The position numbers and the translations under genes are program-made. A DNA stretch of 64,000 bases from a virus, in the IMG/VR virus record IMGVR_UViG_3300020042_011666, positions 32,001-96,000 of that record; one strand, given 5' to 3'. Position 1 is the stretch's first letter, and every line of letters begins with the position of its first letter. The notes under the pieces are model-generated. The model was not told the origin of the DNA, made no database searches, and worked only from the letters and a program-made list of their open reading frames with translations. Positions 14,965-47,464 of the stretch are shown in pieces.

Positions 14965-14990
14965 CTATCATACATATTGAAAATTATTTG

Positions 14991-15283: not shown

Positions 15284-15284
15284 G

Positions 15285-15355: not shown

Positions 15356-15360
15356 ATGTT

Positions 15361-15612: not shown

Positions 15613-15620
15613 TTTTTTGT

Positions 15621-15977: not shown

Positions 15978-15998
15978 AACTTTTATTTTTATTTCTTA

Positions 15999-16151: not shown

Positions 16152-16171
16152 GCATATACATATATCACCTC

Positions 16172-25621: not shown

Positions 25622-25622
25622 A

Positions 25623-26081
25623 TTATTCTGGTAATACTTCAATATACGAAAGACATTCCATAAAATCACCTTCTTCAAAATGTTTTATAGTACTCATATC
25701 CATTCTATACTCATAATATTCTCCCTTTTTACCGGGAAGTGGATATTTAGTTTTTTCTTCTTCTTTAACAGGTACGGCTTTAACCGCAGCCCATTTCCAA
25801 TCGTGTTCTGAAACACCATCAGCAAATACCATTCCTTGATTAGGAATGTTTACTACTGAGGGCATCCAAACAATACCTGTTTCCTCTTCCTCGCCCATAA
25901 GTGCTTTATATAAGTCAGGAAGGACAGCTAATTGTTCTTGAAGAAAATCACTATCTACTTTCATCAAAGTATTAGTTTGAAAACCACAGCCATAACAAAA
26001 GTATGTCTGAATTTCAGGAGTAATATCCTGAGTGTAGCAGGCATCCGAGCCGCAGCGTTTACAAATTGTTAAATTGTCCAT
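25623..26081 (-). CDS. zinc-ribbon protein
   Basis: CKRC and CYGC pairs. Confidence 0.6.
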   Translation of the reverse strand: MDNLTICKRCGSDACYTQDITPEIQTYFCYGCGFQTNTLMKVDSDFLQEQLAVLPDLYKALMGEEEETGIVWMPSVVNIPNQGMVFADGVSEHDWKWAAVKAVPVKEEEKTKYPLPGKKGEYYEYRMDMSTIKHFEEGDFMECLSYIEVLPE

Positions 26082-26265
26082 GTATGTGTTTTTTATAATT
26101 TTCTAAAGCTTCTAATGATGCTTTTCTTTCTATTACGTTAGTTTTAGATACATAATTATTCATATACTTGCCCAGAAGTCTTTCGTGGGTTAGTTTCTGT
26201 ACCTCTCTCCGGGTACGTTTAAGAAGGTATTTAAAGTTTAAAATAATTGTTATTAAGTCTTTCAT
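26059..26265 (-). CDS. hypothetical protein
   Basis: 68-aa ORF, packed. Confidence 0.55.
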   Translation of the reverse strand: MKDLITIILNFKYLLKRTRREVQKLTHERLLGKYMNNYVSKTNVIERKASLEALENYKKHIHGQFNNL

Positions 26266-27539: not shown

Positions 27540-28993
27540 TAATATATTAATTTATGTACAACTTGTTTTTTCTTTTTCTCACCAGCTAAAATTAGCTCGT
27601 ATTTTTCTCTAGGTGTCCAGGTGTTAAATAACTTATCAACACTGTTAATAACTCGTTCACCCATTTTTTCAGCACTTAATCCGCCTTCATCACTCATAGC
27701 CCATTCACGACCTGCTAATCCCCGTCTTTGTCTTTCTTCAAGACTTAAATTGTAAATAGCCTCAATTTGGTCAGCAGCATCTTCGGCTTCACACCTGTCA
27801 TCAAAAATGTAAGGTGTTGGTACTGAACCAACTAGTGAGCGAGATGTTGGGTATACTGGAAAGGCCCACTCGCCATGTTCTTTATAAGTACCTCTATGGT
27901 TTGATGGAAAATTCTTATCAAAATCCATCCATTTACCGTCTTTAACAAAGCGCATTTGGTCTTGCATTCCTCCCGTTACGTTAGCGATAATAGGTTTACC
28001 TGCTAACATAGCTTCAGTTAAACTTAATCCCCAACCTTCATTAGATGTTAATAAAATTTGAGCGTCTGCAATGTTATATATCCAATTTAATTGTTGACTA
28101 CCTGTAGGGCCATCAGTGAATATAACATTACAATAATCCTCAGGACATAGTAATTCAACTACAGCATTTAAATCAGTTCCATTATCATCTACTCGTTGAG
28201 TATGTAATATTAAACAACATTTTTTAGCTTGTTCTTTAGATAATCTATCTACAAAATGCCTAAACGCTAAGATAGTATCTGGAATCTGTTTGCGCCTGAT
28301 GTTTCTTGAGTTAAAGAATAAGACAAAATTATAGTCTGTCCCCTTAAATAGTTGTTTTTTAAAGTCTAAAAATTCTTTAGATTTAAATTCCTCATTAGTT
28401 AAAGGCCTAAAAGTGTTTTGGTTTACACCGTGAGGAACATAATCAATAACTTTGTTTTTAGCTTTATCACCTAAAACCAATTTATTAATGTTTACTGTTT
28501 GTTTTGAAATACCTAACAACGCATCACAAGACTCATAAAAAACCTCATTGTACAATGGTGCTGGGTAGTCATCCCAAATGTTTAAATAAATAATAGGGGT
28601 TGTTTTGCGGATTTCATTTTCAATCTGGAATAACCAAGCCCAATAGCGAGGGTCAGTAATTAAGAAAATAGCATCTGGTTTTTCAATCTGAATTAATTGT
28701 CTTAGCAAGTCGGGATTTCCATACCCGTCAATTGGGTATAAAAATACGCTAGCATCATTAATGCCAATTTGGTTACCTGTATCAACGCTAATGTCAAATT
28801 TTTGACCAGCCTCAGGATGGTTAATAGCTCCACCAACATTCACCCAATTGTAGCGGTGACAAGTGTTAATTACGATTTCACGACCTACGTGAGCTACACC
28901 CGAATGAACTCGAATGTCATCACACATGATCATGATTTTTTTACGTTGGTCTTTTGGGATATAGTATTTATCCACTAATTCTTTATTTGGCAT
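27539..28993 (-). CDS. GT4-like glycosyltransferase
   Basis: VPHGV, RNIRRK and NEGWGLSLTEAM motifs. Confidence 0.85.
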   Translation of the reverse strand: MPNKELVDKYYIPKDQRKKIMIMCDDIRVHSGVAHVGREIVINTCHRYNWVNVGGAINHPEAGQKFDISVDTGNQIGINDASVFLYPIDGYGNPDLLRQLIQIEKPDAIFLITDPRYWAWLFQIENEIRKTTPIIYLNIWDDYPAPLYNEVFYESCDALLGISKQTVNINKLVLGDKAKNKVIDYVPHGVNQNTFRPLTNEEFKSKEFLDFKKQLFKGTDYNFVLFFNSRNIRRKQIPDTILAFRHFVDRLSKEQAKKCCLILHTQRVDDNGTDLNAVVELLCPEDYCNVIFTDGPTGSQQLNWIYNIADAQILLTSNEGWGLSLTEAMLAGKPIIANVTGGMQDQMRFVKDGKWMDFDKNFPSNHRGTYKEHGEWAFPVYPTSRSLVGSVPTPYIFDDRCEAEDAADQIEAIYNLSLEERQRRGLAGREWAMSDEGGLSAEKMGERVINSVDKLFNTWTPREKYELILAGEKKKKQVVHKLIY

Positions 28994-32363: not shown

Positions 32364-33980
32364 TTAATACATTTCAGGCATTCCGCCTAAACTAGCATCA
32401 TCTTTATTGTCTTCTAATTTATCAACTACAACAGCCTCAGTTAATAGAATAGTTCCTGCTACTGAAGCAGCGTTTTGAAGTGCAGTACGAGTTACTTTAG
32501 TAGGATCGATTACACCAATTGTTTTCATGTCATCAAAATCATCCGTTTTAAGATTAAATCCATACCAATAGTCACCACCTGTAGCTCCAGATAAAGCATT
32601 GTAAATATCTTCTTGTACGTATCCGGCATTAGATAAAATTTTCTTAAATGGACTTGAACATACTTCATATACAATTTTACTTCCAATGTTGTTAAAATCT
32701 TTAATACCATTTCGAGCGTGCAATAAAGCCATTCCACCACCAGGTACAATACCTTCTTCAATTGCTGCTTTAGTTGCATGGAGAGCATCTTCAACACGGT
32801 CTTTCTTTTCTCTCATTTCGGTTTCAGTATTTCCACCTACATAAACAATAGCAACTCCACCTACCATTTTAGCTAAACGTTCTTGTAGTTTTTCAACTTC
32901 AAATGCTGATTTAGCGTGTTCGATTTGGTGTTGAAGGTCTTCAACTCGTGCTTTAATTTTTTCTTCATCTCCACCACCATCAACTAAAGTAGTTTCTTCT
33001 TTGCTAATAGTTGCTAAACGACACTCACCTAACCAATCTAGATTAAATTTATCAAGTTTCATACCACGATCAGGAGAAACAACAGTTCCACCAGTTAAGG
33101 TAGCAATGTCTTCCATAATTAATGATCTACGGTCACCAAAGTCAGGGGCTTTAACAGCACATACTTTTAATAGGCCTCTCATTTTGTTTACAATAAGAGT
33201 AGCTAATGCCTCACCATCAATATCTTCAGCAATAATTAACAAAGGACGATTTTGATTAGACATGTTTTCAAGTAAAGGTAATAATTCTTTTACTTGGGTT
33301 AATTTTTTCTCATAAATTAATACTCTAGGGCGTTCTAAAACAGACTGCATAGTACTGTTATTAGTAACAAAGTATGGAGATTTAAATCCACGATCAAACT
33401 GCATACCTTCTACTGTTTCAAGGTATGTTTCACCGGTACGAGATTCCTCAATTGTAACAACTCCATCACGACCTACTTTTTCCATTGCGGTAGCAATTAA
33501 AGCCCCAACTTCCGGATCATTATTTGCTGAAATGGTTGCGATTTGAGTTAATTGTTCTTCAGATGAGATTTCCTCAGAAATTTCGGTTTGAAGGTGCTCA
33601 ATTACTTCTTTAACAGCTTTATCAATACCTCTTTTAATTTCTACAGCATTCATTCCATTATTTAAATGTGTTAAACCAGCTTTAACCATTTCTTGAGCCA
33701 ACAATGTAGATGTGGTTGTACCATCACCTGCATTGTCTGCGGTTTTAATAGCGGCTTGTTTAACCATCTGAACACCTAATTCTTCAATTGGGTCCTCTAA
33801 TGAAATTGATTTTGCTACAGTAACACCATCTTTAGTAGATTGAGGATATTCATTTGCTTTTGAAATAACAACATTTCGTCCATTAGGACCTAAAGTTGCT
33901 GTAACTGCGTTTGCTAACTTATCAATGCCGTTAGCTAATTTTCTTCGGGCTTCTGGGCCAAACTCTATAACTTTGCTCAT
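32364..33980 (-). CDS. groEL: chaperonin GroEL
   Basis: [25 protein letters not shown] and GIVPGGG motifs. Confidence 0.97.
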
Positions 33981-33981
33981 A

Positions 33982-34266
33982 TTAATCTATAATTGCTAAA
34001 ACTAATTTTTCACTACAAACATAATATTCTTGCCCCTCATATTCGGTTTTAGTAGGACCCATAGGTGGGACAATTACTTTTTGTCCTTCTTTTAATGTAG
34101 TTGGAACCATAGTGCCAGCAATAGTCCAGCTACCTGGTCCAACTGATACAATAGTGCCCATTAAACTTCTGTCTTTACCAATGTCGGGTACAATAATGTT
34201 ACCGTACATGGTTTCTTCTTCTGTGTGTGGTTTAATTACCACGTTATCAAAAACTGCTTTTATCAT
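33982..34266 (-). CDS. groES: co-chaperonin GroES
   Basis: DNVVIKP, GNIIVPD, GTIVSVGPG; adjacent to groEL. Confidence 0.9.
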   Translation of the reverse strand: MIKAVFDNVVIKPHTEEETMYGNIIVPDIGKDRSLMGTIVSVGPGSWTIAGTMVPTTLKEGQKVIVPPMGPTKTEYEGQEYYVCSEKLVLAIID

Positions 34267-34276
34267 AATCTTATTA

Positions 34277-34306
34277 AATATACAAACTTTATTTTAAGTA
34301 ACCAAA
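34277..34306 (-). promoter_or_regulatory. class-1 promoter motif
   Basis: TTTGG-N18-GTATATT upstream of groES. Confidence 0.7.
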
Positions 34307-34317
34307 TTTATTATAAA

Positions 34318-34650
34318 TTAAATACCAAAACTCTCACCACAACCACAAGTCCTGCTTGCGTTTGGATTAGTGAATAAGAATCCTTTACCATTTAATCCTT
34401 CTGTAAAATCTAATTCGGTCCCTAATAAATATAATAAGGACCTTTTATCAATAACTAATTTTAAACCTTGGTCTTCTGATATTTCATCAAAAGGAACTAT
34501 CGTATCATCAAAGTCTAAATCATAAGTTAAACCAGAACAACCTCCACCTTTCACCGATACTCTTAAAAAATGATCTTCGGTGCATTGTTCCTCCACCATC
34601 AGTTTGTCTAATTGGGATTTGGCTTTCGTGGTCAAAGTGAATATTTTCAT
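34318..34650 (-). CDS. iscA: Fe-S cluster carrier IscA/HesB family
   Basis: GGGCSG and CGCGESF motifs. Confidence 0.93.
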   Translation of the reverse strand: MKIFTLTTKAKSQLDKLMVEEQCTEDHFLRVSVKGGGCSGLTYDLDFDDTIVPFDEISEDQGLKLVIDKRSLLYLLGTELDFTEGLNGKGFLFTNPNASRTCGCGESFGI

Positions 34651-35610: not shown

Positions 35611-35640
35611 AATATACGAATAAAATTTTAATTATCCAAA
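35611..35640 (-). promoter_or_regulatory. class-1 promoter motif
   Basis: TTTGG-N18-GTATATT. Confidence 0.7.
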
Positions 35641-38295
35641 TTTAAAAAATCTGTGTACATTACGATTAAATATGGGTTGTCCCCAACCAATGTCTTTATA
35701 TAATGTTTCTAATTTATTTTTCATAACGCCATCAAAGATTCCATCTCTGTCTATATAGGTGTTAATAAATTCAATTATTTCTGGAGGATCATCGTAACCA
35801 TTAAAACCAATAACATCAATTTTGTATGGGTTATTCTTTAAATAAGCAAGAAACATTTTATCTCCTACCTGAAATAATGAATTGGTTTTGTCTAGTTTTT
35901 TAAAGCGAAGGAAATCATTGTAAAATATAGCTGCTTTAGTGTTAATAGGACATTTTAATTTTAATTTAGAGAATATTTCACCAGCTCTAGGACCTCGCTC
36001 AGTATACTCTTTTAATTGCTTTAATCCAGTAGGTTTTAAGATTTTTGTCCACTCAATAGTTTGTAATGATTCTCTAAAATCAAGTACTTGAGAGTCAATA
36101 CTTGGCTTAGATTTACCAAACATAATCTCATTAATAATGTGTTCACCAAACTTTTTAAATAATGGAGGGAAATTTGATTTCATCAAATCCAATCCCTTAA
36201 CATCTAGTTCATCTGTTGGGACACCTTCTTTATTAACAATGTGTTGGGCGTATCTACGTTTACCAGCAAAATAACCTCTATCTAATACAACCTCTTGTTT
36301 TAATTCAAAATAGTGTTGTGTATCATCTCCTAAATTAAAAGCATCTCTAGCAAATTCACCTATAAACTTATTTGCCATTGCTTGTAATTCAGTAGCAATT
36401 ACTAATATTTTTTTAATTACATCCTCTTGATTAGTAAAATCAATATCCGGATGTCTTGCTTTTAATAAGTCTTTGCACTGGATAAAAAGTGAATCTGTAT
36501 CACTTGTAACAATATAGTCTACGGGTGTTTCGTTATTTAATTCATTATTTAAATAGTCATTCATATTAGTAATACTTTCTTGTAACAAACGTTGACCTGT
36601 TAAAGTAATCGCCTTACTAATAAATTTATTGCCATCTGTGTATCTCCAACCATTAATAGCAAATACACCATAAACGTCATTTAATTTAATTTTATACGCG
36701 TGTTGGCGCCTATCATAAAAGGATCCCATAACCGGGTCATTATCTTCCTTATATGCTTTTTTCATCAACCTTTTATATTCTTGACGTTTAGCAAACCAGT
36801 CAGATAAAATTTCACATACAACACTTGATTTGTCTTTACGGAACATTACTCCGGGTGCTGATATGACTAGGTTATTTTTTTCAATAATATTAATTAAGTC
36901 TTTTATTTTGGTTTGTGATAATGCTATTGTTCTATCTTTTTTAATTTTTTCAATATTAACCACTCGTTCAGGATCCATCTGCTTTAATTCCTTTAATGAC
37001 CATTGGTTGTCAAATTTACCATTGTGAACAACTCGGCCAACTAAAGTTTCAATACCCATGTTTAATGAGCGAATAATAGATGGATATAGTGATGTAAAAT
37101 CTAGGTCAATAATCCATTCATATAAACCCGGTATTGGGTCTTTTAAATAACCACCAGCATACTCGGCTAAAGATACAATATCATCGTATTCCTCTTTAGT
37201 AATTTCTTTTTTCTTATATAGGCCCTCAGCATTTTTAACACTAATATCTTTTAATGCGGGGTTATAAGTAGTTGGTTTATTTGGTGAGACTATACCTTTA
37301 CGTTTTAAGTATGTTAAAATAGCACCTTCATTCAGCATTGTTGAATAATAAATCTGCTCATATTCTGTATGGCAAAGGTGGCAGATTGTAACTGTTAATT
37401 CAACAAATTTAAGTTGGTTTTCTAGTTCAACTATAATTTCAACATCTCGAATGTTATACTCAATAAATTTATCTATATCTTCGTTAAATAATTTATCAAG
37501 TGAACCTTGATATTCTATTTTTTCTAACTTAGCATATTTTCTACCTATTTCCCCTAATTTATAAGACGGCTCTTGTTTAGTAATGTATTTTTTAAACAAC
37601 AACATATAGTCAAGGTGATTAATACCTGCTAAGTTAACGGGTTGTTCGGGAAATTGGGGTGTAAATGTTATTTTTCCTAGTGGAGATAGGTAGTTAGCTG
37701 TATCCTCTCCTAATACTTTACATATTCTATAATACAAGTAAGGTATATCGAAGAATCCACTATTCCATCCTGTAATAATAGTAGGATCTAATTCAATCCA
37801 TTTATCAAGGAAACCGTGTAATAATTCTTTTTCAGATATAAAGGGAATAATTTGCTTTTTATCGCTATTAATCTCATCCATTTTACTTTCTTTATCCAAG
37901 ATAAAACAAAAGTATTTTTGAGAATTATTATCATATAAAGCAATAGCTGTTATTTCACCTTTAGGATTTTTAATGTTTTCAGGTGTTAATGCCCCCGCAA
38001 TAACACACTCAATATCTAGATAAACAATGTTATTAAATGAGGGAGTATCATCCGTTTCATAATACATGTCTACTAGTAATCTAGTTTCTTTACTAACATC
38101 TTTTTCATACAATCCATTATCACTCCAATCTGCTTTTTTAGTTGGTGATACACGAGTACCTTCTAGTGTTTCGTATTCACCATCTGGATCAGCAAAGTAA
38201 TAAGTGGGGTGGTACTTAAAAGATTTCCACCCCATTTTATCATCTCGTAAATAATATTGTTTTTCTCCTCGGTCGTAATAGACGGATTGGTACAT
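35632..38295 (-). CDS. family B DNA polymerase
   Basis: Exo motifs DIE, GWNSGFFD, YNIRD; pol motifs DFTSLYPSII, KIKLNDVYG, DTDS, KRRY. Confidence 0.96.
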   Translation of the reverse strand: MYQSVYYDRGEKQYYLRDDKMGWKSFKYHPTYYFADPDGEYETLEGTRVSPTKKADWSDNGLYEKDVSKETRLLVDMYYETDDTPSFNNIVYLDIECVIAGALTPENIKNPKGEITAIALYDNNSQKYFCFILDKESKMDEINSDKKQIIPFISEKELLHGFLDKWIELDPTIITGWNSGFFDIPYLYYRICKVLGEDTANYLSPLGKITFTPQFPEQPVNLAGINHLDYMLLFKKYITKQEPSYKLGEIGRKYAKLEKIEYQGSLDKLFNEDIDKFIEYNIRDVEIIVELENQLKFVELTVTICHLCHTEYEQIYYSTMLNEGAILTYLKRKGIVSPNKPTTYNPALKDISVKNAEGLYKKKEITKEEYDDIVSLAEYAGGYLKDPIPGLYEWIIDLDFTSLYPSIIRSLNMGIETLVGRVVHNGKFDNQWSLKELKQMDPERVVNIEKIKKDRTIALSQTKIKDLINIIEKNNLVISAPGVMFRKDKSSVVCEILSDWFAKRQEYKRLMKKAYKEDNDPVMGSFYDRRQHAYKIKLNDVYGVFAINGWRYTDGNKFISKAITLTGQRLLQESITNMNDYLNNELNNETPVDYIVTSDTDSLFIQCKDLLKARHPDIDFTNQEDVIKKILVIATELQAMANKFIGEFARDAFNLGDDTQHYFELKQEVVLDRGYFAGKRRYAQHIVNKEGVPTDELDVKGLDLMKSNFPPLFKKFGEHIINEIMFGKSKPSIDSQVLDFRESLQTIEWTKILKPTGLKQLKEYTERGPRAGEIFSKLKLKCPINTKAAIFYNDFLRFKKLDKTNSLFQVGDKMFLAYLKNNPYKIDVIGFNGYDDPPEIIEFINTYIDRDGIFDGVMKNKLETLYKDIGWGQPIFNRNVHRFFKFG

Positions 38296-38798
38296 TATTT
38301 TCTTTGTTTATCGTTTTGCCACTGGCCGTTATATAGCTGTTCTGATGCCACAGGTTCACATTCATGGAAATACACTTGTGCTACTCGAGCATCTTGTTCA
38401 ATGAATATAGTTTCAAGCACAACCATGTAAGTACCAATATTAGGTGTTACGAATCCGGGATCAAAAATGCTTGATGTAATAATAGCACCGTTTCTCATTA
38501 AAGATGAACGTTGACGAATTAAAGCAACTCGGTTTGATGGGATATTACATCCCTCATTCATAATTACATCATAAACACCAGCATATAACAACCAACCATC
38601 TCTCCAATCCATGTTTGATTTTTCAACAGGAGTATGAGTATTAAGTTCGGTTTTGTCAACTAAAACTTTACCAATTGAGCCTCCTACCTTATTAATTTCT
38701 TTAACAGATAAATCATAACCTACTTGAGCTGGTTTTCCTTTAGCATTATCTAAATTAAGTAAACCCTGCTCTAATAATTGTTCAGCATTTAAAATCAT
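38295..38798 (-). CDS. trimeric dUTPase/dCTP deaminase family protein
   Basis: GYDL, RSSLMRNG, DPGF, RVAQ and YNGQWQ motifs. Confidence 0.8.
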   Translation of the reverse strand: MILNAEQLLEQGLLNLDNAKGKPAQVGYDLSVKEINKVGGSIGKVLVDKTELNTHTPVEKSNMDWRDGWLLYAGVYDVIMNEGCNIPSNRVALIRQRSSLMRNGAIITSSIFDPGFVTPNIGTYMVVLETIFIEQDARVAQVYFHECEPVASEQLYNGQWQNDKQRK

Positions 38799-39493
38799 AT
38801 CCTGTGTCCTCCGTTGTTAATTTTTAAGCTGTCAAAGAATTCTTTGCGTGCTTGATTTTCGTTATCCATAAACACACCTGATGCTTTGGTAGTAACCATA
38901 GATGCTCCTTGATGTTTTACACCCCTACAAGAAACACAGTTGTGGGTTGCAACTATAGTTACAATAACACCTCTGTTATGTTCACAAATTTTATCTACTG
39001 CCTGATGGATAGCGGATGTTAATTGTTCTTGAATAGCACCTCTACGTCCAAAATGTTCTATAATACGATTTAATTTAGATAAACCAATTACTGAGCCATT
39101 TTCACCTACAATGTAACCAACATGAACTACACCTCCAATTGTTTGGTGGTGATGAGAACACATTGAAGTAAGTGGAATGTTACGTTCAATAACAATTCCA
39201 TCATATCCGTCACTTGGAAATGAGGTAATTTCACTCATAGCCTCGTAACGACCTTTCCACAAATCAAATACATAAGCTTTAGCTACACGACGCGGTGTAT
39301 CCGAACTATTAGGATCATTTTTCCAATCACATCCTAAAGCATCTAAAAATTTACCATAAGCTTCAGCAGCCTCATCTACCATTGACCATTTTTCCTTTTC
39401 GGTAAATGGGAAACCAGGAGCGATACCATTTGCATAACCAGTTTTTACACACTCTAAATCGAGTGTAAATGTTTTTTTATTATCTTCTACCAT
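38795..39493 (-). CDS. folE: GTP cyclohydrolase I
   Basis: TPRRVAK, SMCSHH, GLSKLNR, QEQLT, HNCVSCRG. Confidence 0.95.
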   Translation of the reverse strand: MVEDNKKTFTLDLECVKTGYANGIAPGFPFTEKEKWSMVDEAAEAYGKFLDALGCDWKNDPNSSDTPRRVAKAYVFDLWKGRYEAMSEITSFPSDGYDGIVIERNIPLTSMCSHHHQTIGGVVHVGYIVGENGSVIGLSKLNRIIEHFGRRGAIQEQLTSAIHQAVDKICEHNRGVIVTIVATHNCVSCRGVKHQGASMVTTKASGVFMDNENQARKEFFDSLKINNGGHRI

Positions 39494-39499
39494 ATTAAC

Positions 39500-40018
39500 T
39501 TATTTTACAAAAACGTAGGGTATGTTACGATATAAACCATTATCGTCCATCCCATATCCACATAACCAATTATTATCCTCAATATACAAAGAAGAATATA
39601 GTTTTCCAAATCTATTTTCAAACTTAATACCCTCTCTTGTAAACAAAGTTACAATGTTTATACTTAAAGGTTTTTTAGCTAGAAAATGATTCAATAAAAA
39701 TTTCATAGTATTTCCTGAATCTAGTATATCATCAATCAGGAATATATTTTTTTCCTCAACATCTAATTCGATGTCTTTAGTTACAACGGGTTTAACTTGT
39801 GATTGGTTAGTAACATAAGATTTAGTTCTAACAAAATCACATTCAATAGGAAAACTAATTTGTTTAACTAAATCAGTATAAAACATAAAACCACCGGTTA
39901 ATACACCTACAAACACATTATTTTCGCCCCAATATTCGGTGGTTGTGTTTAGCTCAAAAGCAACTGTTTTTACAGCATCTTGAATTTGTTGTTCATTAAA
40001 TAAAATTTTCGTATTCAT
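39500..40018 (-). CDS. hpt: hypoxanthine/guanine phosphoribosyltransferase-like protein
   Basis: VLTGGFMF, KSY, LIDDILDSGNT PRPP motif, GYGMD. Confidence 0.85.
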   Translation of the reverse strand: MNTKILFNEQQIQDAVKTVAFELNTTTEYWGENNVFVGVLTGGFMFYTDLVKQISFPIECDFVRTKSYVTNQSQVKPVVTKDIELDVEEKNIFLIDDILDSGNTMKFLLNHFLAKKPLSINIVTLFTREGIKFENRFGKLYSSLYIEDNNWLCGYGMDDNGLYRNIPYVFVK

Positions 40019-40289
40019 TAATTAATTTACTAAAACCTGTATATTTTTTTATAACTTTTCCGTTTTTAATTTCTAAAACTGTTGGATAATATTCTATACC
40101 CATTTCCTCATTTAAATAAGGATCTTCATTACTAATATTATATAATGGAGCTTTTGAATCAGCAAATGCTTTTTCTAAAACAGGGGTAATTGTAGCACAA
40201 TGTCTACAAGTGTCTGAGGAGAAAAAAACATAAAAATGGTTTTCAAAGATAAGATAAGAATCAAACTGTTCTGAGGTAATGTGTTTCAT
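39996..40289 (-). CDS. thioredoxin-like protein
   Basis: CRHC and YYPT motifs. Confidence 0.75.
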   Translation of the reverse strand: MKHITSEQFDSYLIFENHFYVFFSSDTCRHCATITPVLEKAFADSKAPLYNISNEDPYLNEEMGIEYYPTVLEIKNGKVIKKYTGFSKLINEYENFI

Positions 40290-40301
40290 ATTGTATAAAT
40301 A

Positions 40302-40505
40302 TCACTTTTTAATTTGTTGCTTTAATTTTTCAGCATACACGATACCATCCATTAGTTCCTCTTGGAAATGGTTTAACCAATCCCAAAATTCTAAGTCATT
40401 ACGGTCCATAGTTACACCGTATTTTTCTTTTCCCATTTTTGCTCTGTTAGCAAATTTGTCAATAACCGCTTGTACAACCAAATCTGGTTGAAAGTTTTCG
40501 CTCAT
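40302..40505 (-). CDS. small MazG-like all-alpha protein
   Basis: KYG...WLNHFQEELMDGIVY (EExxD). Confidence 0.5.
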   Translation of the reverse strand: MSENFQPDLVVQAVIDKFANRAKMGKEKYGVTMDRNDLEFWDWLNHFQEELMDGIVYAEKLKQQIKK

Positions 40506-40508
40506 AAA

Positions 40509-41081
40509 TTATTTAATTAAATATTTTGTATAATCGCTTTGTGTAGGTACAATATTAGGGAAATAATATACTTCTTTTTTAGCACCAATCCAAATAGTTT
40601 TATAAAAACCATCTGGTATAGTTGCACCTGTAGGTAGTTTTTGTGAACGAGGAGAATAAACCATCCTAATTTCAACTTTAACGGTTGCTGTTTTAGCTAA
40701 ATCTCGCTCGTGTATTTCTAGTATTCTCCAAACACCTCTATTTAATTTTTCGTGTTGCAAAACACAATTTACATAAGAGAATGTTTTATATAACATTTCC
40801 TTAGTACAATTAAAATCAGCAGCAGGGGCACAATGTCCTTTATCCCAAACATTAGCAACATAATCGTTAGCATCAGATGTAATAACACCAGGGAAAGAAT
40901 AAAAATCCATTCCTGTACGAGGAGCAGTACCTGTAGGACACAAAACAGTATACCATACTCGTTTAGGTTGTTGTAAGATTTCTGAGTAGACTGCTTCGTA
41001 AATGTCTGTTTTAACATAAACTGAATCGCGTTGAGCGAATAGAGATAATGGGAGTAAAAATAGTAATAATATAGAACGCAT
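40509..41081 (-). CDS. secreted DNA/RNA non-specific endonuclease
   Basis: Signal A|Q; DKGHCAPAAD, LNRGVW and IPDGFYK motifs. Confidence 0.85.
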   Translation of the reverse strand: MRSILLLFLLPLSLFAQRDSVYVKTDIYEAVYSEILQQPKRVWYTVLCPTGTAPRTGMDFYSFPGVITSDANDYVANVWDKGHCAPAADFNCTKEMLYKTFSYVNCVLQHEKLNRGVWRILEIHERDLAKTATVKVEIRMVYSPRSQKLPTGATIPDGFYKTIWIGAKKEVYYFPNIVPTQSDYTKYLIK

Positions 41082-41096
41082 ATTAATAAATATTAA

Positions 41097-41393
41097 TTAT
41101 TTGGTTCTTGATTTTTCCATATGCTCCCAAAGTGATTCGTGACTGTAGCAGATTGGATTCTTATTTTCATCCCAAGCTCCTACTTCTTTGCTTCCAAAGT
41201 CTCTTTCATAACAGTACCAAGAAAACCAGTCATAACCTTCTTCCCCGTAGATTTCTTTTAGCAGTTCTCCGATAATAACACCGTAAGGATCAGTCCAATC
41301 TATCAAATCTATTTTCAAATCATAGAGAGCAGATACTGCTTTGTCTTGCTTTTCTATAGCTGTAATTACTTTTAAAAAATTTTCGTATGTCAT
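41097..41393 (-). CDS. hypothetical protein
   Basis: 98 aa, DWFSWYCYERDFG. Confidence 0.6.
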   Translation of the reverse strand: MTYENFLKVITAIEKQDKAVSALYDLKIDLIDWTDPYGVIIGELLKEIYGEEGYDWFSWYCYERDFGSKEVGAWDENKNPICYSHESLWEHMEKSRTK

Positions 41394-41395
41394 AA

Positions 41396-41638
41396 TTAGT
41401 TACTAGTAAGTCTATTAATTTCTTTTAAGTAATCTCTAATTTCAGCAGCATTCTCGTAATCTTCTACTTCAGGTAAGATTGCATACTCCATCATACCGTG
41501 GAGTAATGCTTTAAAGTCTCCTTTGTGCTTTGAATCTAAATGATTCTGTAGCCAGATTTTTTGTTCAAATGGAATGTTTGAATTGTAAATTTCCGGATGC
41601 ATTTTATCCTTGTATAGAAGTCGAGTGCTGTAGTCCAT
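41396..41638 (-). CDS. hypothetical protein with UVR motif
   Basis: EDYENAAEIRD. Confidence 0.55.
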   Translation of the reverse strand: MDYSTRLLYKDKMHPEIYNSNIPFEQKIWLQNHLDSKHKGDFKALLHGMMEYAILPEVEDYENAAEIRDYLKEINRLTSN

Positions 41639-42429
41639 TAAACAGCTCTCTTAGTATCGTAACTAATAATGTGGTCTCTGCCGGTCCAATTGTAACCTAC
41701 CTTCATAGCTATTTCAATAGATTTTGGATATATTTCAATTAATGTTTCTCTAGTATCCCCAGCAGGCATCAACCAAGTTTTATTCTTAGGAATATTCATT
41801 TCCTGTCTGAATATTTCAATTTCACCTAAACACTCTATTGTACCATCCCAAACTGGTTTGTAATGATAATCAGTATGATAATCTAAAGTTTTACGAATTG
41901 CATCATAATTTAAACGTAGTTTGTTGTGTTGATCAATCATTTTTTGATCAACGAGTTTACCCATTGGAGTGGTAACGTTAAGAGCAGGAACAGAATTACT
42001 AAACTTTGGAGATAAAGATACCAACCCAAACGGATAATCGGTTTCAACATAGTGGCTACCTTCTGTTTCAATGGTTATACATATACCACGTTCGTGAGCA
42101 AAATGAGTAAGTTCATTACAAAGGTCGGGTTGCATTGTTGGTGAACCTCCAGTTAACATCATTTCTGTGATTCCAGGATCTTGATCATAAATCTTAACAA
42201 TGTCATTAAACGTATAGATACCTTTTTCTGGATGGATACTTGTGTACCAAGAATCACACCATCCACCTTCACCAAACCAGCATCTGTGAGTACAGCCTGT
42301 TGTTCTAATTGCTATTGTAGGACGTCCTTGTCTTGAACCTTCTGATTGTATACAACGGTAAATCTCAAGTACAGGTAATTTTTTGTTATAGTCGAGAATA
42401 CGACCTGGTTTTTTATATTCTTTTTCCAT
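41638..42429 (-). CDS. queE: 7-carboxy-7-deazaguanine synthase (radical SAM)
   Basis: IQSEG, RTTGCTHRC...WCDS, LTGGSP, IETEG and SPK motifs. Confidence 0.9.
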   Translation of the reverse strand: MEKEYKKPGRILDYNKKLPVLEIYRCIQSEGSRQGRPTIAIRTTGCTHRCWFGEGGWCDSWYTSIHPEKGIYTFNDIVKIYDQDPGITEMMLTGGSPTMQPDLCNELTHFAHERGICITIETEGSHYVETDYPFGLVSLSPKFSNSVPALNVTTPMGKLVDQKMIDQHNKLRLNYDAIRKTLDYHTDYHYKPVWDGTIECLGEIEIFRQEMNIPKNKTWLMPAGDTRETLIEIYPKSIEIAMKVGYNWTGRDHIISYDTKRAV

Positions 42430-42431
42430 TA

Positions 42432-42896
42432 TTATCCTTTGTAAAGGGCACTATTTTTTCCATGTTCCATAAACTCAACTTGAGCTACTCTAACGCGCCC
42501 ATTAGTTTCTTCGTTAATAAAAACATTAAGTTTTTCATATACAAATTTAGCAAATTGCTCAGCACCAACGGCTGGTATTACTCGTACCTGAGCTAGTCCA
42601 TGATCGCCCATAGCTTTCCATCCAGCTAGGTATGGGTCATCTTCAGCCACAATTAAAGTGTGGTCAAACATATAGTCCATCCATTCTTTAGGGTTCATAT
42701 CATCGATAGTTCCTTTAGCGCGTTTCATGCCTCCAAAATCCCAAACCCAATTACGTTCATCAAGTTCACCTTCGAACCATACTTTAAAACTTACTCCATA
42801 GCCATGAAGGAATCTACAATGTGTACCTTCTGCTTTCCATTGACGAAATACGCAACTAAATCCGTCAAAAACTTTTGTTGATATATGTTTACTCAT
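42432..42896 (-). CDS. queD: 6-carboxytetrahydropterin synthase
   Basis: CRFLHGY, WDFG, FDH and GAEQFA motifs. Confidence 0.88.
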   Translation of the reverse strand: MSKHISTKVFDGFSCVFRQWKAEGTHCRFLHGYGVSFKVWFEGELDERNWVWDFGGMKRAKGTIDDMNPKEWMDYMFDHTLIVAEDDPYLAGWKAMGDHGLAQVRVIPAVGAEQFAKFVYEKLNVFINEETNGRVRVAQVEFMEHGKNSALYKG

Positions 42897-42897
42897 A

Positions 42898-43140
42898 TTA
42901 TTTATAAAAATTTATAATCTCATTTAATGATTTAACTCCTGTAAATCTACGAACTTCTTTTCCGTTCTCCACAAGAATTACTGTAGGAACACTTCTTATT
43001 TCAAAATCTGTTGTATACTGTTTTTGAGTATCAACATCTACTTTTATTACTGGTACTTGTTTACCTACTTGTTCCATGATGGGGGATAGGGTTTTGCATG
43101 GTTGACACCAGGCTGCGGAGAAATATATTAAGCTTTTCAT
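42898..43140 (-). CDS. thioredoxin
   Basis: WCQPC and SVPT motifs. Confidence 0.9.
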   Translation of the reverse strand: MKSLIYFSAAWCQPCKTLSPIMEQVGKQVPVIKVDVDTQKQYTTDFEIRSVPTVILVENGKEVRRFTGVKSLNEIINFYK

Positions 43141-43292
43141 ACTAGTTCCTCATAAATACCAATAGTCTCACTAAAGATTAAAGTAATAGCTGCTACCTCA
43201 ATATCAAAAAATAAAAAAGCATATCCTAAGATACGAATAGCGGATTTAATAAAACTAATTTGTTGGTGTTTTTTAGGATTAGGATGGTTCAT
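43137..43292 (-). CDS. small membrane protein (not in ORF track)
   Basis: 51 aa MNHPNPKKHQQISFIKSAIRILGY...EELV with ATGA overlaps. Confidence 0.6.
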   Translation of the reverse strand: MNHPNPKKHQQISFIKSAIRILGYAFLFFDIEVAAITLIFSETIGIYEELV

Positions 43293-43483
43293 AGTTCTAT
43301 AATTTCAGTTTTAGGGTAATGTTCTAAGATTCGTGATGTATGTTCTTTATATAAAACCTTAGCTTCTTTCCAATTGTGTGACCAAAATAGGGAACCATAC
43401 ATCATTCCGATGTATGCTTCCCCTTCTTGGTTCACAATAATATATTCTTTACGTTCAAATGTTGGTCGTTTTGGCGTCCTCAT
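43289..43483 (-). CDS. hypothetical protein
   Basis: 64-aa ORF. Confidence 0.5.
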   Translation of the reverse strand: MRTPKRPTFERKEYIIVNQEGEAYIGMMYGSLFWSHNWKEAKVLYKEHTSRILEHYPKTEIIEL

Positions 43484-44327
43484 AATTTTCTAAAACCGAA
43501 GATACGAACTCTTTTACATATTCCCAAGTTACAGGGCCAAATTCATCAGCATATTGAACTGGATCTTTTCTTCCCAATTTAATAAATGCCTCTACTCGCT
43601 CAACACTTGATGCTGATTTGTAATCTGAAAACCATTCTTCTGATGGGTTGCCATAGCTGTCAAAAACAACATGAACCATAGGCTTATATGATGTGTTTGT
43701 TTTAGCGTATACCTTATCAAAATTTAAGTGAAGATAAGTACAGCACTTTTCACCATCTTTTAAAATACCAGCCTTATCATCACTAAGATAAGGAGTATAA
43801 TACTGGACACGATCAGCACCCCAGTTACCAGCACAAAAAGCAGCGTAATCAATATCTCGAAACTCCTGGCGGCAGTCCGGATAAATTGCATGATCCCCTG
43901 CATGGATACCCATTGCGATTTTAACTTCTGTATTTTTTTCATCTGCGATACTTAATGCTACTGCTTGAATAATTGAACTAAATATTTTATTACGATTAGG
44001 GACAACTGTTGCTTTCATATTATTTTCAGCATAGTGTCCTTCAGGAACATCATCTCCACCTTTTACTAAGGCTGAATTAAGTAATTTGTCTAACCCTTTT
44101 AATGTAATTGTTTGATGTTTTACTTTAGCATAGTATTGTTCATCCTCATAACGAGAATGGTTGTTTAAATACTTTACTAATTCTTTAGCACGTTCTAATT
44201 CAATGTTGTGTTTTTGACCGTAATCAAAGGATAGTGCTGTAACTTCGTAGCCATCGGCAAGTAGACGTAGTAACAGTGTCGAGGAATCCATTCCCCCAGA
44301 TAAGCTAAGCACTGCTTGTTTATTCAT
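43455..44327 (-). CDS. queC: 7-cyano-7-deazaguanine synthase
   Basis: SGGMDS, FDYGQKH, VPNRN and YPDCR motifs. Confidence 0.93.
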   Translation of the reverse strand: MNKQAVLSLSGGMDSSTLLLRLLADGYEVTALSFDYGQKHNIELERAKELVKYLNNHSRYEDEQYYAKVKHQTITLKGLDKLLNSALVKGGDDVPEGHYAENNMKATVVPNRNKIFSSIIQAVALSIADEKNTEVKIAMGIHAGDHAIYPDCRQEFRDIDYAAFCAGNWGADRVQYYTPYLSDDKAGILKDGEKCCTYLHLNFDKVYAKTNTSYKPMVHVVFDSYGNPSEEWFSDYKSASSVERVEAFIKLGRKDPVQYADEFGPVTWEYVKEFVSSVLENYEDAKTTNI

Positions 44328-44461
44328 AGTTTTGTTTTGTTTGCTAATTTACGTAATTTTTCTAAATTATTCAAGTTCATTCGAAAACGATTTTCCCAAA
44401 TAGCATCTAGTACTTTTTTAATTTCCGCCTCCCAAGCGGGATTAATATCTATTTTTTCCAT
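44324..44461 (-). CDS. small hypothetical protein (not in ORF track)
   Basis: 45 aa MEKIDINPAWEAEIKK... Confidence 0.45.
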   Translation of the reverse strand: MEKIDINPAWEAEIKKVLDAIWENRFRMNLNNLEKLRKLANKTKL

Positions 44462-44464
44462 AAT

Positions 44465-44707
44465 TTAAAAAGGTAAGTCGTCTGGTTCATTGTAAAGGAT
44501 TTCTGTAGAAGATGTTGTTCCCTTATTAAAATAATCATCTAGCCAACTTTCAGGATACATCTGGATTGGTCCAGAGTATATAGAGTTACTTACTTCTTTG
44601 GTTTTAATTGGAATTTCGTCATGTTGAGCTGCTGTGCTTACTTGCATTCCTAATTCTCTACCTGCTGGTTTCTTTAGGTAGTCGTAAAGTGATAGAAATT
44701 TTTCCAT
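44465..44707 (-). CDS. hypothetical protein
   Basis: SLYDYLKKPAG...DDLPF; start placed after the promoter motif. Confidence 0.65.
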   Translation of the reverse strand: MEKFLSLYDYLKKPAGRELGMQVSTAAQHDEIPIKTKEVSNSIYSGPIQMYPESWLDDYFNKGTTSSTEILYNEPDDLPF

Positions 44708-44713
44708 AACTAT

Positions 44714-44743
44714 AACATACAAAAGATTTTTTAATCCTCCAAC
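44714..44743 (-). promoter_or_regulatory. class-1 promoter motif
   Basis: GTTGG-N18-GTATGTT. Confidence 0.65.
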
Positions 44744-45541
44744 TTAAAATTTATTAAGTTTATTAAAATATTCTAGGTTATATGTTAATAATTGGTAATC
44801 GATTTTTTCGGGTTCAATGTACATTACATCATCAATTCGAGTTTTAGGTTTAGTAATCAAACCATATTCTTTGTATTTAGTACCCTCAATAGTTGCAATG
44901 ATAGGATTTGAGGTATCAATTGTATCTACAAATGTAAATCCTTGATAGTATAAAAATTCTTGAGGTAAGCAACATCCTAATAAGTGGATCTTATCACCTT
45001 GAGAAATTATTTTTACATTGTGGAAATGAGTAATAATAGAAATTCTACCTAACATTTTAGCCATATCTACATTAGGGTGTTTTACGTACTTAGCATAAAA
45101 CGTTAATCCATATGGAAATGCAATCTTTTTATATCCTGAGAGTTTGTATGATTCATAACAACGGATTAAATCGTGCAATCCTAAACCTTGAACAACTGCT
45201 ACTCTCATTACCTCCTCAGGCCAATCTTTCATATGAATCCATTTTTCGGCATTAGCAATAGATAAATTAGCATTTTCCCAAACATCAGGAACAATAAATT
45301 CATTGGGTTTAAGTTCATTAATCCAATATATTAATCTTTCCCAATCATATGCCTCACCTAATTCATGGAGCGAGTTGTCCATAATAATGTAACGGCCTTC
45401 TTCTTTAGCACGACGGAAGTAATTCTCATACTCCGGTTCCTTGTCTAATAAATGAGGCAAACAGTAATCATAATCATTAAACTGCTTACTATCTTCGAGC
45501 AAGCATAATGGGGTTTCGTGTGATTTCTTAATAAACGACAT
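44744..45541 (-). CDS. TGT-fold base-exchange protein (DpdA-like)
   Basis: IMDNS, VPDV, AVVQG, IHLLG and IDTS motifs in TGT order; near queC. Confidence 0.7.
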   Translation of the reverse strand: MSFIKKSHETPLCLLEDSKQFNDYDYCLPHLLDKEPEYENYFRRAKEEGRYIIMDNSLHELGEAYDWERLIYWINELKPNEFIVPDVWENANLSIANAEKWIHMKDWPEEVMRVAVVQGLGLHDLIRCYESYKLSGYKKIAFPYGLTFYAKYVKHPNVDMAKMLGRISIITHFHNVKIISQGDKIHLLGCCLPQEFLYYQGFTFVDTIDTSNPIIATIEGTKYKEYGLITKPKTRIDDVMYIEPEKIDYQLLTYNLEYFNKLNKF

Positions 45542-45556
45542 ATTATCTTCTACATA

Positions 45557-45590
45557 AATATACAAAAGAGGGCTTGTAAAACCAAGCCCT
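45557..45590 (-). terminator. intrinsic terminator overlapping class-1 promoter
   Basis: AGGGCTTG-GTTTTA-CAAGCCCT-CTTTT containing CTTGG-N18-GTATATT. Confidence 0.7.
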
Positions 45591-45610
45591 TCTTTTATTT
45601 TTTGATTAAT

Positions 45611-47464
45611 TTAAATTATTTCGCACGCACCTCCGGCACAAGCTGCTTGGTCCATCAATGCTGTATTGTCACTAATTTCAACTACTTTTGACAAGTCTAA
45701 CAAATGAAGTGGTTTAATAGCCTCGTTAAATTGTTCTTCAGTAATGGTTTCGAAAGGAGCTTGAACATAAGTACCTAAGTCCTCAGGTAAGAATGATAAT
45801 GCTGTAAAGTATTCTTTATTGTCATATAGCCAATCTCCAACCCCAGCCCATTCATCTTTTTTAATAGTTACTGTAGCTGATACATTATGCATGTTATTTC
45901 CTTTTCTATGGCCTGGTTTAATCCAATTTTTATTAATTGTTTTAATACGCTCTAATAAATCCATAGCTGATTCACTACGCGTAATTGAACCTTCTGGAGA
46001 ACGCTGAGGAATAGATAATACTGATTGTAATGTAGGTTTAAATACATCATCCTCTAGCATTTCAGGGTGGTAAACAGATAAGTATGAGTATAACGCCTCA
46101 TTTTTGCCTAAACGGATTCGACGCATGTAAAAATCATCGTGCCAAGCATGGATACCTGAGCTAGTACCTAGTACTAATGATGTAGTACCTGAAGGTTTAA
46201 CTGTAGTTACACGAGCTGCTTTGTTAATACCTAAAATAGCTGCTACTCTTTCATTTTCATCACAAGCGGCTTTAGCTGCTTCTTTCATATTTAATTTAAA
46301 TACAGCACCTGAGGCAATACCTGTCATTCCAATACCTAATAATGCTTCTTTTTCGGTTGTTTTTTTCCAAATATCTCTTAAGTAATGGAAATCAGTATAA
46401 GAGGCTTGTAGTGTACCAATAAAAGCTGCTGCTTTAGATCGTGCATTGTATTCCTCTTGTGTTTCAATGTCTGAAGCATTAATTTCACATAGGTTACAGA
46501 ATTGATTAGCTTTTAAATTAATTTCAGCACAAGGGTTTGTTCCAGCATCTTTATCGTTTGTAAACAAGAAACCAGGTTCACCACTATTAGAGGCCTCAAT
46601 TTTTTTCCACAGTCCGAAGAATGTGTCTTTATCAATTTTGTTACGAAGCAACACTGCTGAGTTATTAGAACGACCACGTTGTGGGTTATGTTCCCACCAG
46701 TTGCCAAATTTGCAAGTTAGCATATCCTCATCGTGTAAATTAAACAATGCGATCAAAGCCGCCCTACGAATACCTCCGGACAACACAGCATCAGCTAAGT
46801 GACAAATAATGTCGTGACATTCTAAAGTTGTTAATCTTTCACCATCGTTTTTACGGTCTAAAATCGCTTGCATATGTACTAAAGCAATTTTCAATGGCTC
46901 AGGACCTGGTGCTTTACCTCCAACTGTAATTAATGATGCACCTTTAGGGCGGATATCACGGAAGTCAAATAATGGGGCGGTTGTGGTGTAACCAAAATAA
47001 GCTTTAGTTAACATACGAACAGCATCAGCCCATCCTTCAATAGAATCACCTACTAAATAACGCTTTGATTTTAAAGGTTTTCTAATTTCGGGTAATTGCT
47101 CAACGTGGTGAGTTTGTACTGAGTATCCTACTCCACAACCTGAAAGCAATAGGAACATAATTTCAGAGAATGCCCTGTGGTCATCAATTGGTAAGTAAGA
47201 GCAGTTAAAGATACGAGAGTTGTTAATGGAAATAGGTTTACCTGCAAATTGCATTGAGCGCATTGAAGGTAATACTTTTTTCTCATATACATACTTGTAT
47301 GCAGCTTCAATTTCTTCAGCTAAATTTGGAAATTTATCCAAATGCATTGTTTTATTGCGTGTAACGAGTTCTTCCCATGTTTCACGTCGATTTTTTTCAG
47401 GGACGTATTTGGCGTATTTAAGGTACACGGTTACATCCGACAAGATATTTTGTTCGATATTCAT
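45611..47464 (-). CDS. nrdJ: class II (B12-dependent) ribonucleotide reductase
   Basis: LPSMR, FNC, TNPCAEI, VKPSGT and C-terminal CAGGAC motifs; no beta subunit in window. Confidence 0.9.
   Translation of the reverse strand: MNIEQNILSDVTVYLKYAKYVPEKNRRETWEELVTRNKTMHLDKFPNLAEEIEAAYKYVYEKKVLPSMRSMQFAGKPISINNSRIFNCSYLPIDDHRAFSEIMFLLLSGCGVGYSVQTHHVEQLPEIRKPLKSKRYLVGDSIEGWADAVRMLTKAYFGYTTTAPLFDFRDIRPKGASLITVGGKAPGPEPLKIALVHMQAILDRKNDGERLTTLECHDIICHLADAVLSGGIRRAALIALFNLHDEDMLTCKFGNWWEHNPQRGRSNNSAVLLRNKIDKDTFFGLWKKIEASNSGEPGFLFTNDKDAGTNPCAEINLKANQFCNLCEINASDIETQEEYNARSKAAAFIGTLQASYTDFHYLRDIWKKTTEKEALLGIGMTGIASGAVFKLNMKEAAKAACDENERVAAILGINKAARVTTVKPSGTTSLVLGTSSGIHAWHDDFYMRRIRLGKNEALYSYLSVYHPEMLEDDVFKPTLQSVLSIPQRSPEGSITRSESAMDLLERIKTINKNWIKPGHRKGNNMHNVSATVTIKKDEWAGVGDWLYDNKEYFTALSFLPEDLGTYVQAPFETITEEQFNEAIKPLHLLDLSKVVEISDNTALMDQAACAGGACEII

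Follow-up and report, generated by a model that had tools for sequence, protein, structure and literature searches.

A DpdA3-type 7-deazaguanine gene block with a conserved hypoxanthine-guanine phosphoribosyltransferase in the replication operon of an uncultured phage

The DNA considered here (the window) is a stretch of 64,000 nucleotides from the viral record IMGVR_UViG_3300020042_011666, and our subject is a block of genes at window positions 35632-47464 (all coordinates are window positions unless stated, and every gene of the block is on the minus strand). Judged from its gene content, this block is a DpdA3-type 7-deazaguanine genome-modification module placed within a nucleotide-supply and replication operon. 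We think it probable that a guanine transglycosylase homologue of the DpdA3 family performs a base swap, that a hypoxanthine-guanine phosphoribosyltransferase (HPRT) returns the freed guanine to GTP for the pathway enzyme FolE, and that the ribonucleotide reductase (RNR), the thioredoxins and the dUTPase of the block represent an ordinary supply of dNTPs. The linkage of HPRT to the deazaguanine genes appears, from a comparison of many phage loci, to be real, conserved and little noticed.

The block is a gene run almost without gaps, in which neighbours overlap by 1-29 nt (PolB with the dUTPase-fold gene, the latter with FolE, HPRT with a thioredoxin, an 80-aa open reading frame (ORF) with QueE, and a 64-aa ORF with QueC). 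The order of transcription is: the RTPR-type reductase, a 273-aa ORF (DpdA3), an 85-aa ORF, QueC, the 64-aa ORF, a thioredoxin, QueD, QueE, two small ORFs, a nuclease, a 67-aa ORF, a second thioredoxin, HPRT, FolE, the dUTPase-fold gene and PolB. The tight spacing and the overlaps indicate that the genes from PolB to NrdJ are probably co-expressed and, because the same order is seen again in many independent IMG/VR contigs, the grouping is no product of chance. Family assignments were taken from Pfam and NCBIfam profile matches, and these agree with a preliminary description of the same DNA on the presence of folE, queD, queE, queC, HPRT, nrdJ and PolB. That description did not include the dUTPase-fold gene, the two thioredoxins or the nuclease with its signal peptide.

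A DpdA3 homologue among 7-deazaguanine genes

The 273-aa product of positions 44744-45565 matches no Pfam or NCBIfam model, and its assignment as a DpdA3-family guanine transglycosylase homologue comes from tblastn, from a PHROG (phrog_19058, 7.7e-37) and from its predicted structure. The tblastn search was run against 50,697 phage records and matched 25, all of them phages of Campylobacter, Cellulophaga, Flavobacterium, Chryseobacterium or Weizmannia. The best match lies in Flavobacterium phage immuto_2-6A (immuto below), in a gene annotated as encoding a DNA guanine transglycosylase (36% identity, 4e-47), and the others include the Campylobacter CP220 group (about 35%, 1e-33 to 4e-32, CP220 itself at 4e-32) and CGPG_00065 of Cellulophaga phage phiST (27%, 9e-5). 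It was on these members that the DpdA3 subfamily was founded in 2023 (PMC10516641).

The AlphaFold model (mean pLDDT 91.6, pTM 0.88) is a (beta/alpha)8 barrel of the type found in tRNA-guanine transglycosylases (TGT), and the best PDB matches returned by Foldseek are indeed such transglycosylases (E 1e-8, probability 1.0, TMq 0.6-0.67) together with the DNA preQ0 insertase DpdA (7ui4). In an alignment of 16 DpdA3 sequences, the motifs DNS, VVQ, HLLGC and DTSNP are invariant, including D63 (in DNS) and D217 (in DTSNP), and there is no zinc-cluster motif. The two aspartate motifs resemble DSGG and FDC-x-PTR of TGT and, by this likeness, may hold the catalytic pair of aspartates (general base and nucleophile). 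DpdA3 is acidic in 19 of 19 homologues (pI 4.5-6.8), which is a weak test of DNA binding as it comes without DpdA1, DpdA2 or bDpdA for control, and its gene is found in genomic association with FolE, QueD and QueE. On the strength of these alignments and of the model, we consider that the gene is a DpdA3 homologue. The preliminary description had seen a TGT-fold gene here, and AlphaFold and Foldseek bear this out; what it had not recognised is that the gene is a DpdA3, the enzyme to which insertion has been ascribed in phages that replace G completely.

Indeed, in all three DpdA3 phages that have been tested (CP220, phiST and immuto), 100% of G is replaced (Cui, Hutinet et al., PMC10516641), and the same paper argued for insertion after replication on the ground that each deazaguanine phage has a DpdA.

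The modified base would be made by FolE (GTP cyclohydrolase I, the first step from GTP; 38795-39493; PF01227, 4.5e-43; TIGR00063, 8.3e-43), QueD (6-carboxytetrahydropterin synthase; 42432-42896; PF01242, 2.4e-14; TIGR03367, 5.7e-7), QueE (the radical-SAM enzyme that makes 7-carboxy-7-deazaguanine, or CDG; 41638-42429; PF04055, 2.6e-6; TIGR03365, 1.3e-14; and several other QueE models) and a QueC-like 7-cyano-7-deazaguanine synthase of 290 aa (43455-44327; PF06508, 3.5e-37, profile positions 1-185 of 210; TIGR00364, 8.1e-35, positions 1-172 of 201). With this gene content, the four enzymes would convert GTP to a 7-deazaguanine base, likely preQ0. The record also contains a second copy of QueC (L025:8765-9586), and both copies match only the N-terminal 85% or so of the QueC models; both apparently lack the canonical cysteine cluster of the C-terminus (as judged by eye), and the window copy is extended by about 60 aa. 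The QueC paralogue has a 99%-identical counterpart in a complete genome of 166 kb (G001), alongside QueF, and, because this near-identical copy accompanies QueF there, the synthesis of preQ0 by QueC seems plausible.

The absence of a queF-like gene, reported in the preliminary description, extends to the whole record, in which PF14489 finds none (the record has 111,940 bp and is about 67% complete, and absences from it are limited accordingly). No DpdN homologue was found in the record either, and QueF is also absent from the complete PolB-type relatives. Since no QueF, DpdN or DpdL was seen, we predict a base at the level of preQ0 (or of ADG), likely preQ0.

The window resembles immuto in several respects: both have DpdA3, FolE, QueD and QueE, folE is directly preceded by a gene for a 6-oxopurine phosphoribosyltransferase (PRTase) and followed by one for a dNTP pyrophosphatase, and GroES/GroEL and a DNA polymerase are nearby. 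The PRTase is of the Gpt type in immuto and of the Hpt type in the window, the pyrophosphatase is of the PRA-PH type in the former and has the dUTPase fold in the latter, and the polymerases are PolA and PolB, respectively. In the window, unlike in immuto, the RTPR gene adjoins dpdA3, and QueF, DpdN and an AAA_28 kinase were not found in the 112 kb, which is why we predict a base at the preQ0 level and not the fdPreQ1 of immuto. CP220 (dADG) and phiST (dDG), for both of which complete replacement of G was reported, share with the window a DpdA3 homologue, FolE, QueD and QueE. CP220 differs in that it lacks a PRTase, that an HD/P-loop protein as well as an AAA_28 kinase flank its dpdA3, and that its dUTPase is located elsewhere; phiST differs by MazG, a QueD-like ORF of 115 aa and an AAA_18 kinase beside dpdA3, its sole PRTase being 17 kb from the deazaguanine cluster. 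Our guess is that this QueD-like ORF may be the DpdL of the authors of the 2023 study.

The phosphoribosyltransferase and the pyrophosphatase at folE

The HPRT gene (39500-40018; PF00156, 1.9e-23; TIGR01203, 1.6e-37) stands 6 nt upstream of folE and encodes an Hpt-type enzyme of a divergent phage clade, which is matched by 59 solved HG(X)PRTs (best 4qri, 4.4e-30). We aligned the active sites of 15 phage copies with 35-46% mutual identity. The residues S67, Y68, D97, I98, D100, G102, G154-Y155-G156, R164 and N165 are invariant, and D96, T104 and D158 nearly so. In other words, the S-Y loop, the phosphoribosyl pyrophosphate (PRPP) motif DD-I-x-D-S/T-G-x-T, GYG-D and the RN pair are all kept, and they align with cellular Hpt. 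We take the second aspartate of the PRPP motif as the equivalent of human Asp137, which serves N7 of the purine (it was mapped by eye from the motifs). Because the N7 aspartate is strictly retained, and 7-deazaguanine has no N7, we infer that the substrate is ordinary guanine or hypoxanthine. HPRT most likely recycles the expelled guanine, and would not be the builder of the modified nucleotide. With the bacterial and protozoan enzymes of TIGR01203, it shares the fold family, the PRPP motif, the catalytic aspartate, the S-Y loop, an aromatic stacking residue and the C-terminal RN; it differs from them by an identity of only about 30%, a shorter catalytic loop, a one-residue insertion after GYG-D and an arginine at the O6 contact.

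An alignment-based scan of IMG/VR viral contigs gave at least 342 phage relatives of this HPRT, and the best 80 of these loci were reduced to 53 non-redundant clusters at about 90% identity, to which the following counts refer. Que or FolE genes lie within 10 kb of HPRT in 49 of the 53 loci (L081, L082, L127 and L128 have no Que genes in the available flanks), and folE begins at most 200 nt downstream in 31. A pyrophosphatase comes next in 45 loci (27 of the PRA-PH/MazG type and 18 with the dUTPase fold, none having both), and a DNA polymerase then follows in 41 (PolB in 33, PolA in 8). The QueE-HPRT-FolE synteny is thus maintained in related IMG/VR loci. In immuto, the gene directly upstream of folE is annotated as a phosphoribosyl transferase and belongs to another subfamily (Gpt), from which it seems that 6-oxopurine PRTase activity, and not one lineage, has been conserved at this position. 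CP220, whose genome has no PF00156 PRTase gene, nevertheless reaches 100% replacement (as dADG), and for this reason we regard the PRTase as a helper and not as the entry step of the modification. The word phosphoribosyltransferase has no mention in the 2023 DpdA3 paper (PMC10516641).

Between folE and the polymerase, positions 38295-38798 encode a protein of 167 aa with the trimeric fold of dUTPases and dCTP deaminases (DCD), a probable dUTPase (PF22769, 4.1e-11; PF00692, 4.2e-5). Its best solved relative is 9w59, an archaeal-type "probable dUTP nucleotidohydrolase" (9.4e-15), and the archaeal-type dUTPase model NF002598 gives 6e-24, which is under the cut-off of that model and far better than dCTP_deam. 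The motifs RSS-x-x-R-x-G, D-x-G, R-x-A-Q and Y-x-G-Q-W-Q are kept in the protein and its homologues, with R97, S98, S99, R102, G104, D113, G115, R138, Q141, Y156, G158, Q159, W160 and Q161 invariant. The glutamate of VVLET, which by the DCD motif would be at the place of the deaminase catalytic residue, gives way to V or S in the paralogue as well as in the homologues of G001 and of contig G002. A dCTP deaminase was considered for this gene and rejected, given the lack of conservation of this glutamate, the match to 9w59 and the better score of the dUTPase model.

Complete relatives contain exactly one of the two pyrophosphatases, dUTPase-fold or PRA-PH, and no other gene with the dUTPase fold: immuto and G010 have the PRA-PH type only, and G001 has the dUTPase fold only, ThyA being encoded in that block too (the canonical dUTPase of CP220 lies elsewhere in its genome). 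The simplest reading is that the pyrophosphatase of the block would be a dUTPase and not an enzyme that clears dGTP. As an aside, immuto and distant relatives share 76-82% identity in the PRA-PH type, which is far better conserved than DpdA3 (36%).

The preliminary description had tentatively assigned a depletion of dGTP to an "EExxD MazG-like" ORF. This is the 67-aa ORF at 40302-40505, and we could not uphold the assignment: it has no Pfam match even at E<=1, the PHROGs that it matches are all of unknown function, hhalign against the MazG of phiST gives a probability of 0.3%, and of the metal motif E-x2-E...E-x2-D it shows the second half alone (EELMD). The ORF is conserved in relatives, at other genome positions, and has no assignable role; in the ESM Atlas, its best named cluster (0.78) is a sub-threshold lead only. 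A depletion of dGTP by a MazG-like protein is thus not supported, the ORF being not detectably MazG and the real pyrophosphatase of the block belonging to the dUTPase family.

Base exchange on DNA or on free nucleotides

In the scenario that we favour, DpdA3 would exchange guanine for the deazaguanine (that such an exchange can be complete is known from the three characterised DpdA3 phages in the literature), and each swap would release one guanine, which HPRT would convert with PRPP to GMP. Host kinases could then take GMP to GTP, both for FolE and, via RTPR, for dGTP. RTPR and the two thioredoxins would supply dNTPs, the dUTPase-fold protein would serve as the dUTPase of the phage, and PolB would replicate the genome. 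The recycling role of HPRT would be the same if DpdA3 exchanged the base in finished DNA (as has been published) and if it did so on free deoxynucleotides.

Several observations weigh against this scenario, some concerning DpdA3 and others HPRT. Complete base replacement is typical of pre-replicative pathways. DpdA3 is a minimal barrel, small, acidic and without the zinc motif of TGT and DpdA, which fits an enzyme working at the nucleotide level better than one working on DNA, and the same can be said of the P-loop kinases directly beside dpdA3 in immuto (gp203), G001, locus L017, CP220 (gp055, gp057) and phiST (CGPG_00066), those of the first four including homologous AAA_28 kinases. Furthermore, the activity of DpdA3 has never been reconstituted, and attempts in E. 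coli failed (PMC10516641). One may thus imagine that DpdA3 acts on free nucleotides, in such a way that a pyrophosphatase would yield dGMP, the base would be exchanged on dGMP (or on GMP or GTP before RTPR), a kinase would phosphorylate the product again, and the polymerase would incorporate the modified dNTP, HPRT still recycling guanine. We regard this as unlikely, even if it would account for the 100% replacement in all tested DpdA3 phages (PMC10516641), and even if NTP pyrophosphatases occur in or near the clusters and dpdA3 adjoins, in the window, the gene of an NTP-reducing RTPR.

The kinases can be read in both directions. An AAA_28 P-loop kinase of 174-202 aa, over the Pfam cut-off, is present in four of four complete genomes of the HPRT/DpdA3 type (G010, G011, G016, G017), which favours a nucleotide-level DpdA3, but it is located there 50-100 kb from the cluster. 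In the 112-kb record (about 67% complete), a Walker-A scan and a PF13521 search revealed no nucleotide kinase: the former matched only a PRK/aldolase fusion (in the sugar cluster), the clamp loader, DnaB and a RecA-like protein, and the latter only the P-loop of the clamp loader. The pyrophosphatase at the conserved position, in addition, looks like the only dUTPase of the phage.

Phage T4 (with dCTPase, dCMP hydroxymethylase and dNMP kinase) and the Z-genome phages (with PurZ, MazZ and DatZ) achieve complete base replacement before replication, and a DpdA3 working on nucleotides would parallel the hydroxymethyl-C and Z-genome pathways. Like the window, these systems encode together a dNTP pyrophosphatase, an RNR and their own polymerase (for the Z genome, see PMC12884076). 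Unlike them, the window has no identified dGTP-clearing enzyme or dedicated dNMP kinase, and its pyrophosphatase looks uracil-specific by family. No member of the TGT superfamily is known to act on mononucleotides, and the structures closest to DpdA3 are those of enzymes acting on tRNA or DNA. We found no demonstrated nucleotide-level route for deazaguanine in phages in the literature searched. The pre-replicative idea is not new but an existing hypothesis, a modified-dGTP route having been proposed for Campylobacter phages in an earlier paper by the group of the 2023 study (quoted in PMC6884629).

The observations concerning HPRT lead to the route suggested in the preliminary description, in which HPRT would itself phosphoribosylate preQ0, CDG or ADG, host kinases would take the product to the triphosphate, RTPR would reduce it and PolB incorporate it, and a pyrophosphatase would remove dGTP. 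The window HPRT reaches 128.8 bits with TIGR01203, for an equivalog cut-off of 150 (the second copy in the record, 119.3). The phage enzymes, so distant from cellular Hpt, also diverge much faster (37-43% identity) than FolE and QueE (70-90%), which could mean a changed substrate. The lysine that contacts O6 is an arginine in the window enzyme and in that of L020 (other phage copies have lysine in this column or in the neighbouring one), and the stacking phenylalanine is replaced by tryptophan in most copies. Moreover, there is a precedent in the superfamily, since TubE is a proven CDG:PRPP phosphoribosyltransferase, which shows that 7-substituted deazaguanines can be substrates of PRTases, and a like activity with preQ0 is predicted for ToyH (PMC6112128). 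Their clusters resemble the window in that a type I PRTase is encoded together with homologues of FolE, QueD and QueE (and QueC). Finally, HPRT is a conserved member of the cluster, and RTPR and PolB belong to the same operon.

We consider this route very unlikely all the same. Divergent phage copies keep the N7 aspartate and the other canonical active-site residues unchanged. TubE was aligned by its authors with Sulfolobus GpT-2 (4Z1O) and is thus of the Gpt type, whereas the window enzyme is of the Hpt type (a comparison at the level of families), and the tubercidin and toyocamycin clusters, unlike the window, contain neither a transglycosylase nor a polymerase. CP220 does without a PRTase, the PRTase of phiST is distant from the cluster, and no role would be left for the universally present DpdA3; the "MazG-like" ORF is unsupported, the pyrophosphatase is dUTPase-like, and no gene resembling a GMP kinase was found in the record. 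What remains of the suggestion is the conserved place of HPRT in the cluster and the precedent of TubE; what does not fit is a canonical 6-oxopurine site, N7 aspartate included, and the lack of a PRTase in CP220.

A more trivial explanation would be that HPRT is a generic auxiliary gene of purine salvage, and that its location only reflects a shared "early/replication" operon. The block does contain an RNR, thioredoxins, a dUTPase and a nuclease as well, and the four loci mentioned above have no Que genes in their available flanks. Yet the immediate proximity of folE in 31 of the 53 loci, and the presence of Que or FolE genes in 49, speak against it, as does the fact that no HPRT homologues were found in cultured phages outside the group, the other matches being unannotated fragments or bacterial-looking records. 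We hold this to be the least probable of the explanations.

Finally, one may ask more generally if complete replacement of G is made before replication on free nucleotides, by DpdA3 exchange on dGMP, GMP or GTP or, less likely, by the PRTase, with RTPR and the polymerase handling the modified nucleotide. This strikes us as rather doubtful.

The record, the rest of the block and significance

The phage appears, from its sequence, to be an uncultured large phage of Flavobacteriia-type bacteria, related to Immutovirus. Much of the block occurs a second time in its record, in diverged form and just upstream of the window, with identities of 40% for the dUTPase-fold protein, 40% for HPRT, 81-82% for the nuclease, 82% for QueE, 75% for QueD and 70% for QueC, and with PolA where the window block has PolB. 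The part present twice amounts to about 18 kb (glycosyltransferases, a PD-(D/E)XK nuclease, GroEL/ES, an Fe-S protein, the dUTPase-fold gene, HPRT, the nuclease and QueE/D/C).

The proteins of the first 46.9 kb of the record (including the window part 1-16200) are mostly 90-100% identical to part of G001, those of the remainder (48-112 kb; window 16200-64000) only 30-80%. The break falls at a pair of minus-strand tRNA genes, tRNA-Glu-TTC (14990-15062) and tRNA-Met-CAT (15284-15355), which matches a tRNA region located elsewhere in G001; a tRNA-Leu-TAA gene is found at 4778-4864, also on the minus strand. Complete genomes of both block types have one block each, and contig G002 also has both types, the second represented merely by its last 1.3 kb. 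A chimeric assembly of two co-occurring related phages is no less likely than a real duplication or mosaic. The window block itself falls entirely within one part of the record and is corroborated by the independent contigs L001, L019, L020 and G002. We also noticed two different glycosylation cassettes (window 20224-28993 and L024:7706-16192); one has several GT1, GT2 and GT4 glycosyltransferases and methyltransferases, and the upstream cassette has in addition a GDP-mannose 4,6-dehydratase, a nucleotidyltransferase, a C-methyltransferase and the PRK/aldolase fusion.

At the two ends of the block lie the polymerase, a family B enzyme with a 3'-5' exonuclease domain (PolB, 35632-38295; PF00136, 2.6e-32; PF03104, 5.3e-19), and NrdJ, a class II (B12-dependent) RNR (45611-47464; PF02867, PF21995), which belongs to the NTP-reducing RTPR type (TIGR02505, 2.7e-77, versus 1.6e-14 for NrdJ_Z). 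GroEL/GroES and an Fe-S assembly protein of the IscA/HesB type adjoin the polymerase in the window (32364-34650) and in L024/L025 (record 18.0-21.5 kb). The copies of this Fe-S protein in the two blocks share 99% identity, and a NifU-like scaffold is encoded in block 1 in addition; such proteins could serve the radical-SAM enzyme QueE. The thioredoxins are encoded at 39996-40289 (PF00085, 1.5e-10) and 42898-43140 (PF00085, 7e-19). Two small conserved ORFs, of 98 and 80 aa (41097-41638), are 93-94% identical to their second copies in the record; the former has no Pfam family and the latter a weak UVR motif.

The nuclease (40509-41081; PF01223, 1.4e-18) is a DNA/RNA non-specific endonuclease of the Endonuclease_NS family, whose N-terminus, MRSILLLFLLPLSLFAQ, reads as signal-peptide-like. 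This Serratia-type nuclease inside a deazaguanine cluster is conserved in both blocks and in G001, and once secreted it might spare the modified phage DNA and degrade other DNA outside the cytoplasm.

The window adds no new kind of system, a DpdA3-type gene set having been described already. What it draws attention to is that, between the Que genes and the polymerase, a 6-oxopurine PRTase and a pyrophosphatase of the dUTPase type form a widespread conserved unit (at least 342 relatives in IMG/VR), of which we found no discussion in the literature searched. Genomes with 7-deazaguanine resist most restriction enzymes, and the route to 100% replacement is thus an open mechanistic question, in which the substrate preferences of HPRT, DpdA3, RTPR and PolB would decide between modification before and after replication. 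If DpdA3 turned out to work at the nucleotide level, it would be the first enzyme of the TGT superfamily with mononucleotides as substrates, and for this subfamily the published model of modification after replication would be wrong. If, as we think probable, HPRT recycles guanine, we would be looking at a phage that closes a metabolic loop around the modification of its own DNA.

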